NCBI GenBank assembly: GCA_007124045.1
Contig: SLFX01000034.1
Coordinates: forward strand, 1-50,415
Origin: Candidatus Delongbacteria bacterium
GTDB lineage: Bacteria > UBA4055
DNA length: 50,415 nucleotides
Reading direction: 5' to 3'
Part shown: positions 6,497-7,786 of the stretch, piece after piece
Layout: each line of letters opens with the position of its first letter
Position numbering within the stretch: the stretch's first letter is position 1
Notes under the pieces: generated by a model
Told to the model about the DNA's origin: nothing
Databases searched by the model: none
What the model saw: only the letters and a program-made list of their open reading frames with translations
Translations under genes and position numbers: made by a program

Positions 6497-7786
6497 ATGG
6501 GAACAGATTCATACAATCCTTTCAGAACCGCTCAGAAACAATTTGACAGAGCAGCCATTATCCTGAATCTTGATAGCGCAAGCAAAGATCTTCTGCGAAT
6601 ACCCATGAAAGAATTTCATTTCAGTATACCTGTCCGGATGGATGACGGGTCGAAAAAGATCTTCAGAGGCTACAGGATCATGCACAACAACGCAAGAGGC
6701 GCAGCCAAGGGTGGAATAAGGTTCCACCGGCACGAATCTGTCGATTCGTTAAGGGCTCTTTCCATGCTGATGAGCTGGAAGACTGCAGTGGCTGACCTGC
6801 CTCTGGGAGGAGCATACGGCGGAGTGGAATGCGACCCGAGAGACCTTTCCGAAAATGAACAGGAACAGATATGTAGAGGCTATGTCAGACAGAATTTTAA
6901 TAATATGGGTCCTGAAATCGATGTACCTGCACCTGATCTTATGACCAATGCCATGCACATGCTCTGGATGCTCGATGAGTACGAAACTATGACAGGAAAA
7001 AGAACACCCGGTTTTATTACGGGTAAGCCCGTAGAAATGGGGGGCTCGCTCGGTAAAAAAGAAGCTACCGGTTACGGGGTAATGCTCTGTGTCCGTGAAG
7101 CTTTGAAGGAACTCAGTATCAGTCCGTCAAAGACCTCAGCAAGTTTTCAGGGATTCGGTAATGTAGCACAGAACGCAATAGACCTGTATCAGAAAATGGG
7201 CGGAAAAATCGAATGCATTTCGTGCCTGGACAGAAAAGAAATGAAAGAGATATCCTATTCCAAAGCTGGAGGAGTTATACCTGATGAATTAAGAAAGGTT
7301 ACCGATCCTTTCGGAGGGATAGACAAAAAAAAGGCGGAGGATCTCGGCTACGAGGCAGAGTATAACGACGCGTGGATGAAAAAAGAAGTGGATATTCTTG
7401 TCCCGTGCGCCATAGAAAATCTTATAACTGAAGCAAACTATTCTTCCATACCAGAATCTGTCAAAATTATTGCGGAAGGGGCAAACAGTCCCATCAACCC
7501 GAAGGCGGAAGAAATTCTCGAAAAACAAAATAAGATAAAAATAATACCTGACATACTTGCAAATTCGGGCGGAGTAATATGCTCCTACTTCGAACAGGTG
7601 CAGTCGAACATGAATTATTACTGGGACAAGAACGAGGTTTTCGCAAAACTAGATCAGAAAATAACATCAGCTTATGTATCTGTAAGCGATTTTGCTGTTA
7701 AAAACGGGATCAGTATGCGGGAATCCGCATTTATCATAGCTGCGGAAAGAGTTGCTGATGCCTGCAGAGAAAGAGGTTGGGTATGA
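6497..7786 (+). CDS. Glutamate dehydrogenase-family (ELFV) protein with Tyr in place of the catalytic Lys
   Basis: Family motifs present: [40 protein letters not shown] and [20 protein letters not shown]. The active-site glycine-rich motif reads [14 protein letters not shown], with codon TAC at 6815-6817. The start is set at ATG 6497 because GGAGG lies at 6487-6491; the ORF track starts at ATG 6482. Confidence 0.85.
   Translation: [429 protein letters not shown]

Follow-up and report, generated by a model that had tools for sequence, protein, structure and literature searches.

A glutamate dehydrogenase homologue without its catalytic lysine in a conserved ATP-grasp gene module of Candidatus Delongbacteria

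Contig SLFX01000034.1 of a Candidatus Delongbacteria bacterium (assembly GCA_007124045.1), analysed here over its 50,415 nt and referred to as the window, carries a gene for a protein with the fold of glutamate dehydrogenase (GDH) in which tyrosine occupies the position of the catalytic lysine. The gene is followed directly by one for an ATP-grasp protein of the PPDK_N type, and a second GDH gene with an intact active site (GDH2) lies a few genes further on. We named the first protein GDH-Y and asked why a GDH without this lysine is kept, and whether the genes around it suggest what it is kept for.

Tyrosine in the catalytic column of GDH-Y

The ELFV dehydrogenases use a lysine as general base (Lys125 in Clostridium symbiosum GDH, Lys128 in Escherichia coli GDH and Lys80 in leucine dehydrogenase), and replacing it cuts activity by orders of magnitude. 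A catalytic lysine is likewise recognised in the GDH literature. GDH-Y matched both Pfam domains of the family over their full length (ELFV_dehydrog_N, PF02812, E 7e-47; ELFV_dehydrog, PF00208, E 2e-57), and a phmmer comparison with the PDB gave an end-to-end match to the hexameric GDHs of Thermococcus/Pyrococcus (8zmu, 1euz; E 1e-99). Where the ELFV signature has G-G-[SAG]-K, GDH-Y reads GGAYGG. The phmmer alignment had no gap from residue 12 to approximately 178 and placed the tyrosine opposite the lysine of GGgKGG, and BLASTP against GDH2 put it in the identical column (LPLGGAYGG versus LPMGGGKGG); a shifted alignment, or a lysine moved into place by a gap, was thus ruled out. This column is presumably that of Lys125 in C. 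symbiosum numbering. The original prediction, made from the sequence alone, that the catalytic lysine had become a tyrosine was therefore confirmed, and the translation agreed with its assignment of the TAC codon to residue 112 as counted from the ATG at 6482. Gene callers choose a downstream ATG (Table 1); residue numbers given here are counted from 6482.

Pocket residues K76 (KGGIR) and K100 (WK), both substrate-binding, the catalytic D152 (PAPD) and the substrate serine S368 were kept in GDH-Y, and inspection of the translation also found NSGGV and the remaining substrate and dinucleotide motifs, in agreement with the earlier statements that the other ligand-binding motifs are intact and that GDH2 has a normal GGGKGG. 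The substrate arginine was replaced by lysine (R192K). This is the sole new lysine at a conserved column of GDH-Y, and it was seen too in sequences that bear the catalytic lysine. GDH-Y scored under the NCBIfam equivalog cut-offs for GDH (389 versus 750 bits). From the established role of the replaced residue, we infer that GDH-Y most likely has no glutamate dehydrogenase activity or a severely impaired one.

The same TAC codon was present in four contigs from other assemblies of the same species (two from ENA, one from Logan and one NCBI metagenome-assembled genome), each encoding exactly the protein of the window and 99.9% identical to its gene at the DNA level. It recurs, within GGGYGG, in P0002, an orthologue of 77% identity represented by two contigs of further samples. 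Besides the window, TAC is thus carried by six contigs from five samples (L001, L002, L006-L009). Tyrosine was confined to these two clusters among the 120 closest database homologues, the other 118 having lysine, and this narrow distribution is what could be said for an assembly or sequencing error or a recent pseudogene. Against it stand the six contigs and the comparison of the two Tyr lineages, in which the open reading frame (ORF) is intact on both sides at 77% amino-acid identity, the ligand-binding motifs are kept, synonymous sites are saturated (proportion of synonymous differences, pS, 0.84) and nonsynonymous divergence (dN) is 0.156. Across the same pair, dN was 0.19-0.24 for the neighbouring PPDK_N-type genes and 0.058 for GDH2. 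Saturated synonymous sites together with a low dN indicate purifying selection on GDH-Y long after the lysine was lost. An artefact or a decaying gene is hardly credible on these grounds and was rejected, and the earlier argument that a single-base error could not explain the tyrosine holds: the substitution is real and old, and the gene is neither an artefact nor decaying. No closer relative of the Tyr clade was found in the JGI metagenomes, where the best match had 61% identity; a 94%-identical relative of the 1057-aa-protein gene that lies downstream of GDH-Y (P0241) is on a 5-kb contig that ends before reaching the GDH.

Both Tyr lineages have in common P74A, P83R/M, H120R, R192K and A415S, at columns that are otherwise invariant when compared with the 118 closest Lys-bearing homologues. 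With these changes near the active-site loop, and with pocket and Rossmann motifs intact under purifying selection, GDH-Y could be a neofunctionalised enzyme that is still catalytic through the tyrosine as acid/base or through Lys192, possibly on another substrate; A415S also occurs in an independent Tyr lineage (L037). The distribution of R192K speaks against this proposal, since it was found in three of the 118 Lys-keeping sequences and in none of the other lineages that have lost the lysine. Further evidence on it comes from those lineages and is given below.

As a separate observation, Ala415, in the C-terminal helix, is serine in all three Tyr-bearing GDHs (window, L001 and L037; two independent lineages), whereas Ser415 occurs in approximately 4% of Lys-bearing sequences and in no other Lys-loss lineage. 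This may be a coincidence or may reflect a contact with the tyrosine.

Recurrent loss of the lysine in a conserved module

The gene for GDH-Y is the first of a module consisting of a GDH, a 578-aa PPDK_N-type ATP-grasp protein, a 1057-aa protein and an antisense metallophosphoesterase, which in the window continues with a receiver-domain PPDK_N paralogue, GDH2 and a further receiver-domain PPDK_N paralogue (Table 1). The same gene order was found at the Tyr orthologue (L001) and at Lys-bearing orthologues from Candidatus Delongbacteria (L003, L004). A scan with aligned 578-aa proteins, limited to a single genome for each species, gave 80 loci, from Calditrichota, Ignavibacteriota (including Melioribacter), Bacteroidota, Zixibacteria, Acidobacteriota, Gemmatimonadota, Planctomycetota, Eisenbacteria, Aminicenantes and others; neighbours were counted at the loci with enough flanking DNA. 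A GDH of the GDH-Y subfamily lay directly upstream of the 578-aa gene at 67 of 71 species-representative loci, the 1057-aa gene lay downstream at 56 of 60, and the antisense Metallophos gene was present at 38 of 54. The tight linkage of GDH-Y to a PPDK_N-type gene, which had been proposed from the window, is therefore a family-wide property. The overlap of the GDH-Y stop codon with the next start codon, on which that proposal was built, is present as described but proved specific to the clade: the two genes overlap or abut only in the clade of GDH-Y (L001, L003; L010, approximately 2 nt), while elsewhere the median estimated spacer is approximately 90 nt.

At four loci the 578-aa gene was not directly preceded by a GDH (L058, L021, L025, L049). 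At L058 the module GDH is absent, with a divergent GDH2 and receiver-PPDK_N gene instead and a 40%-identical GDH downstream; at L021 a surface protein sorted by the type IX secretion system lies upstream of the 578-aa gene. At two loci the module GDH is preceded in tandem by an additional GDH paralogue that bears the lysine and has 38-39% identity (L116, 5779-6996; L133, 3322-4539). A scan of positions 6000-22000 of the window for sigma-70 promoters and terminators gave counts near the shuffled expectation, and an Rfam scan found no riboswitch upstream of GDH-Y, its only hit being a tmRNA. Our literature searches found nothing relevant on a GDH/PPDK_N operon, on the module with its GDH or on GDH paralogues without the lysine.

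The catalytic column was covered at 69 further species-representative loci, with lysine at 62 and another residue at seven: Thr (L032), Asn (L081), Tyr (L037), Asn (L070), Ser (L057), Glu (L089) and Gln (L044). The suggestion that every GDH beside a PPDK_N gene lacks the lysine was thus rejected, as approximately 90% keep it; linkage alone does not explain the substitution. A metagenome sample in which module-linked and unlinked GDHs were mixed had lysine in 54 of 54. In all seven other Lys-loss loci the GG.xGG loop was perfectly conserved and the ORF intact. A neighbour-joining tree scattered these GDHs among Lys-bearing ones on long branches, which gives six to eight independent loss events including the window clade, and at least six when the L081/L057/L037 cluster is counted once.

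Other invariant active-site residues have gone in Lys-loss lineages as well, namely the alanine of PAPD, the asparagines of GxGN and EGAN, and the asparagine and the substrate serine of the NSGGV...S region, a further decay that bears the signature of abandoned catalysis. The codons that replaced lysine are AAC, AAC, GAG, CAG, ACC, TAT/TAC and TCA, all other sequences having AAA or AAG; a single step separates AAC, GAG and CAG from a lysine codon, TAY is two steps away via AAY, and ACC and TCA are two steps away via Thr/Asn. This spectrum of codons and residues suggests drift after constraint was lost and argues against selection for tyrosine itself. The key motifs of the partner proteins were unchanged in loci with and without the lysine, suggesting that the module keeps working with a dead GDH. 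Evolution of the GDH was accelerated across all Lys-loss lineages. The replacement of lysine elsewhere by chemically unrelated residues, with more active-site losses following, is the pattern of lost catalysis and again speaks against a GDH-Y that is still an enzyme.

A related observation was made outside the module survey. Of 150 representatives of clusters at 50% identity that are related to GDH-Y, ten had the lysine replaced by M, H, C, V, Q or S (P0366, P0388, P0404, P0423, P0448, P0458, P0477, P0494, P0499 and P0507), in a clustering that over-represents fast-evolving oddballs; the two that were inspected, P0448 and P0458, had further active-site losses and had lost the substrate lysine of KGG. 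GDH homologues without the lysine thus seem to be recurrent and almost unstudied. The new element is that the loss recurs in a single module that is conserved and unstudied, and that it is linked to a second GDH.

GDH2 is an E. coli-type NADP-GDH, 30% identical to GDH-Y (BLASTP), and is 90% identical to its L001 orthologue. An intact GDH2, with GGGKGG in every case, was found at the locus in five independent Lys-loss lineages (window clade, L037, L057, L070 and L089). When loci of at least 15 kb were considered, GDHs that kept the lysine had a GDH2 in one case and none in 34, while those that lost it had a GDH2 in six cases and none in two (Fisher p 3e-5); counted by lineage together with the metagenome sample, the table was [[5,2],[3,44]] (Fisher p 3e-4). 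The position and orientation of GDH2 vary between lineages, suggesting independent recruitment. Such repeated recruitment, as if to replace a lost activity, is a further point against neofunctionalisation, which we consider decidedly unlikely. A GDH2 gene followed by a receiver-PPDK_N gene was found in several unrelated lineages, in the window (16791-21287), L040, L058 and L117-L119, so that the order of a GDH and then a PPDK_N gene recurs with two different GDH subfamilies. The GDH2 of L040 (15321-16657) is split across three reading frames within approximately 150 nt; assembly indel errors are suspected, the isolate label hinting at a series of long-read metagenome-assembled genomes, and a real pseudogene is possible.

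On balance, and with moderate confidence, we favour the reading that GDH-Y is a GDH pseudoenzyme, probably kept for a non-catalytic role in the module while the neighbouring GDH2 supplies catalysis. As in a pseudoenzyme, an essential residue is gone and an intact ORF has stayed under purifying selection over substantial divergence. GDH-Y keeps the full fold and most of the residues that contact substrate and cofactor, without the lysine needed for the chemistry, and selection would maintain it through a second, non-catalytic role of this GDH subfamily in the module. The likeliest such role would be that of a glutamate/2-oxoglutarate/NAD(P)H-binding partner or scaffold of dikinase-like enzymes that bear sensor domains, and an intact GDH2 at the locus would leave the module GDH free to lose catalysis and keep that role (subfunctionalisation). 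That the module survives where its GDH is dead makes a non-catalytic role of the GDH fold most likely; that an intact GDH came to the locus again and again suggests that GDH activity is probably of importance to the module as well. GDH-Y may be a ligand sensor, a scaffold, or a partner or target of the ATP-grasp and nucleotidyltransferase proteins, and its sequence suggests that it could still bind ligands and interact physically or in a regulatory manner with the ATP-grasp proteins. The idea that it is a sensor was already part of the original prediction; it fits purifying selection, a retained pocket and recurrent loss, and sensing is a candidate role.

Several observations weigh against this reading. 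The lysine was lost without a GDH2 in the fetched flank at L032 and L044 (and on the short contig L081), and it was kept despite an adjacent GDH2 at L040 and L117-L120; with exceptions both ways, adjacency of GDH2 is neither necessary nor sufficient for loss of the lysine. The ten Lys-less homologues among 150 GDH clusters make the loss alone less exceptional than it seems. R192K may act as a compensating lysine in both Tyr lineages. The acceleration of GDH-Y in the window clade is modest and largely a lineage effect, and was therefore not used as an argument for GDH-Y. With only 30% identity between GDH-Y and GDH2, a hetero-hexamer of the kind formed in Thermus (see below) is doubtful. Finally, all that is proposed here on the function of GDH-Y is drawn from sequence comparison.

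Partner proteins and candidate roles

Table 1. Features of the GDH-Y locus in the window
Feature	Position	Strand	Remarks
GDH-Y, GDH-fold protein without catalytic Lys	6497..7786	+	429 aa; 434 aa from alternative ATG 6482
Codon TAC, Tyr replacing catalytic Lys	6815..6817	+	residue 112 (ATG 6482) / 107 (ATG 6497)
ATGA stop/start overlap, GDH-Y / 578-aa gene	7783..7786	+	ATG 7783-7785, TGA 7784-7786
578-aa ATP-grasp protein (PPDK_N type)	7783..9519	+	PF01326 E 1e-33
1057-aa protein: GAF-like, helical, PPDK_N ATP-grasp, SFGTHFFQD domain, MNT nucleotidyltransferase	9540..12713	+	
Metallophosphoesterase, convergent with 1057-aa gene and overlapping its end	12706..13554	-	Pfam Metallophos E 1e-12
Receiver-domain + ATP-grasp (PPDK_N) paralogue, ~990 aa, same C-terminal His-motif domain	13664..16630	+	
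GDH2, E. coli-type NADP-GDH, Lys intact	16791..18182	+	NCBIfam NF006929 731 bits (cut-off 536)
Receiver-domain + ATP-grasp (PPDK_N) paralogue, 993 aa, directly after GDH2	18306..21287	+	

The 578-aa protein, which has no close solved relative by sequence, combines its ATP-grasp domain with a C-terminal domain of approximately 170 aa (GFGRWG...SQGSHFFHN) that gave no Pfam match even at E 5, including to the phospho-histidine swivel domain PF00391. The motif SQGSHFFHN was present in 87 of the 89 related sequences checked, and the other two had SQGSHFFQN. Foldseek searches with an AlphaFold2 model (pLDDT 79) matched the ATP-grasp domain to rifampin phosphotransferase (RPH; 5hv3, E 6e-12), phosphoenolpyruvate (PEP) synthase (PEPS), pyruvate phosphate dikinase (PPDK) and HpeI. 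The model places the GSHFF motif in a loop of low confidence; with PEPS/PPDK the Foldseek alignments span 600-690 columns. The C-terminal domain may be a divergent phospho-histidine carrier domain. A PEP/pyruvate TIM barrel (PF02896), or another acceptor domain, was found by Pfam in none of the four paralogues in the window.

At its C-terminus the 1057-aa protein carries a nucleotidyltransferase domain of the MNT type (NTP_transf_2 in Pfam) with the motif GSx10DxD. Its AlphaFold2 model (pLDDT 69) gave Foldseek matches to RPH (E 4e-10), to GAF domains (6oap, 3cit) and to MNT proteins (8xeo, 2rff), and its N-terminal domain resembles, in the model, the GAF domains of sensor kinases. Neither the C-terminal domain of the PPDK_N paralogues nor the first 345 aa of the 1057-aa protein had a significant Pfam match. 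Natural fusions of approximately 1630 aa, in which the 578-aa protein is linked head to tail with the 1057-aa protein, were observed in Ignavibacteriae and others (P0272, P0293, P0298, P0304, P0307, P0314 and P0335); such Rosetta-stone proteins indicate that the two act together. Four PPDK_N-type paralogues, all with a G[FP]GRWG and G[ST]HFF C-terminal domain, lie within 14 kb of the window (7783-21287). The family has thousands of database members and no characterised representative, and members of the module are annotated only as 'PEP/pyruvate-binding domain-containing', 'pyruvate, water dikinase' or hypothetical. With GAF and receiver domains as inputs, the partner proteins look like signalling enzymes and less like part of central metabolism.

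These architectures raise the possibility that the GDH fold binds glutamate or 2-oxoglutarate and presents it to the ATP-grasp/His proteins, which would phosphorylate or nucleotidylate it as a split dikinase. Such an arrangement would agree with a 578-aa protein that has an ATP-grasp and a His-motif domain and neither a TIM barrel nor a rifampin-type acceptor domain, with the existence of split dikinases such as the structural match HpeI, with the recurrence of GDH-then-PPDK_N order in two GDH subfamilies and with the pocket retained by the dead GDH. The proposal is, however, purely inferential, the GAF and receiver domains of the paralogues suggest signalling over metabolism, and several Lys-loss lineages have lost pocket residues too. 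We regard substrate presentation as unlikely.

The nucleotidyltransferase bears on another proposal, offered as speculation in the original prediction, that the active-site tyrosine is a site of regulatory modification. In its fuller form, the tyrosine (Ser/Thr elsewhere) would be AMPylated or phosphorylated by the MNT domain or the ATP-grasp/His proteins, and the metallophosphoesterase would reverse the modification. The MNT-type domain at the end of the 1057-aa protein and the phosphoesterase both belong to the module, MntA enzymes oligo-AMPylate a tyrosine beside the active site of their target, and four of eight Lys-loss lineages have a hydroxyl residue (Y, Y, S, T). The other four have N, N, E and Q, however, and approximately 90% of module GDHs have lysine there, so the residue cannot be the conserved target of the nucleotidyltransferase; the codons also fit mutational drift from AAR, in a single step or via AAY/ACR. 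As a general explanation, modification of the tyrosine was therefore left unsupported by the residue spectrum, the MNT domain being its one contextual plus, and we consider it very unlikely.

More broadly, the GDH subfamily could be the hub of an undescribed, widespread machine in which sensor ATP-grasp/His proteins, an MNT nucleotidyltransferase and a metallophosphoesterase either regulate the GDH covalently or use its fold as a ligand-binding subunit. We put this forward tentatively, as a possible but rather doubtful reading, of which the repeated retention of dead GDHs in the module, through an essential non-catalytic function of the fold, would be a part.

If GDH-Y is the pseudoenzyme that we favour, GDHs have been retained again and again, across many phyla, after their chemistry was gone, which would point to a moonlighting role for the fold, tied to an abundant four-gene module on which we found no paper. 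Loci with a live GDH, a dead one or none form a natural experiment in which they can be compared, including in cultivable relatives such as Melioribacter. The locus is also a warning for annotation, since such genes bear the label 'glutamate dehydrogenase' in spite of the missing catalytic residue.

Neighbouring genes and comparison with known systems

Directly upstream of GDH-Y, positions 148-6380 carry NuoE-like, NuoF-like, NuoG/GltD-like, DHOD-B-type FAD/FeS and GltD/NfnB-like genes, a cluster that looks like an NAD(P)H/ferredoxin oxidoreductase complex, possibly an electron-bifurcating one; this neighbourhood is not shared with the Tyr orthologue L001. Further along, the window carries the tmRNA gene (29168-29527, minus strand; Rfam 170 bits; tag peptide ANNNYALAA) and a polysaccharide biosynthesis cluster (29700-41118) with a cytidylyltransferase, a Wzz-like protein, a flippase and several GT2 and GT4 glycosyltransferases. 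The cluster includes a RimK-like ATP-grasp gene (33832-34875) and two ORFs without a Pfam match (31051-32382, 37864-39114). A PhoU-domain gene flanked by two Na/Pi-cotransporter paralogues lies at 42512-45582 on the minus strand.

Among known systems, GdhA of Thermus thermophilus is reported to be an inactive GDH homologue that serves as the regulatory subunit of a GdhA/GdhB hetero-hexamer. It resembles GDH-Y in being a GDH-fold paralogue beside an active GDH of the same genome and in having, as reported, no GDH activity itself, which for GDH-Y is only probable. It is also the more divergent of the two Thermus proteins when compared with GDH-Y (3aoe_E, E 4e-56, versus 3aoe_A, E 3e-84 for its active partner). 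In PDB searches with other Lys-less GDHs, 3aoe_E never ranked first. GdhA and GdhB are members of one subfamily that assemble into a single hexamer, whereas GDH2, the neighbour of GDH-Y, belongs to a different subfamily, at the 30% identity given above, and GDH-Y is part of a PPDK_N/nucleotidyltransferase module not known from Thermus.

Thermus also has ADLP, a homologue of alanine dehydrogenase (AlaDH) that its authors thought inactive because its catalytic lysine is replaced. Like GDH-Y it has lost that lysine, and it binds NAD(H) and regulates another enzyme; unlike GDH-Y it has the AlaDH fold and not that of the ELFV dehydrogenases, a CoA transferase as partner and no ATP-grasp module. The 'trigger enzyme' GDHs RocG and GudB of Bacillus subtilis also act as regulators by contacting other proteins, and mutation can affect catalytic and regulatory properties separately, according to the title of Gunka et al. 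(2010). RocG differs from GDH-Y in being catalytically active and in controlling a transcription factor, GltC, and a review that cites this paper describes no natural Lys-less variant.

The MNT domain of the 1057-aa protein has its counterpart in the type VII toxin-antitoxin system MntA/HepT, in which a polymerase-beta-type nucleotidyltransferase modifies a tyrosine of its target. The module differs from that system in having no HEPN partner and in that its tyrosine is specific to a lineage while its nucleotidyltransferase is family-wide. Covalent modification of a tyrosine in a target protein by polymerase-beta-type nucleotidyltransferases is also the principle of the GlnE/GlnD-glutamine synthetase cascade. 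PEPS, PPDK, RPH and HpeI share with the partner proteins the ATP-grasp nucleotide-binding domain, by sequence and predicted fold. The module proteins differ from them in having neither a PEP-utilizers swivel domain detectable by Pfam nor a TIM barrel, and in carrying instead the family-specific GRWG...G[ST]HFF domain together with GAF, receiver and MNT domains.

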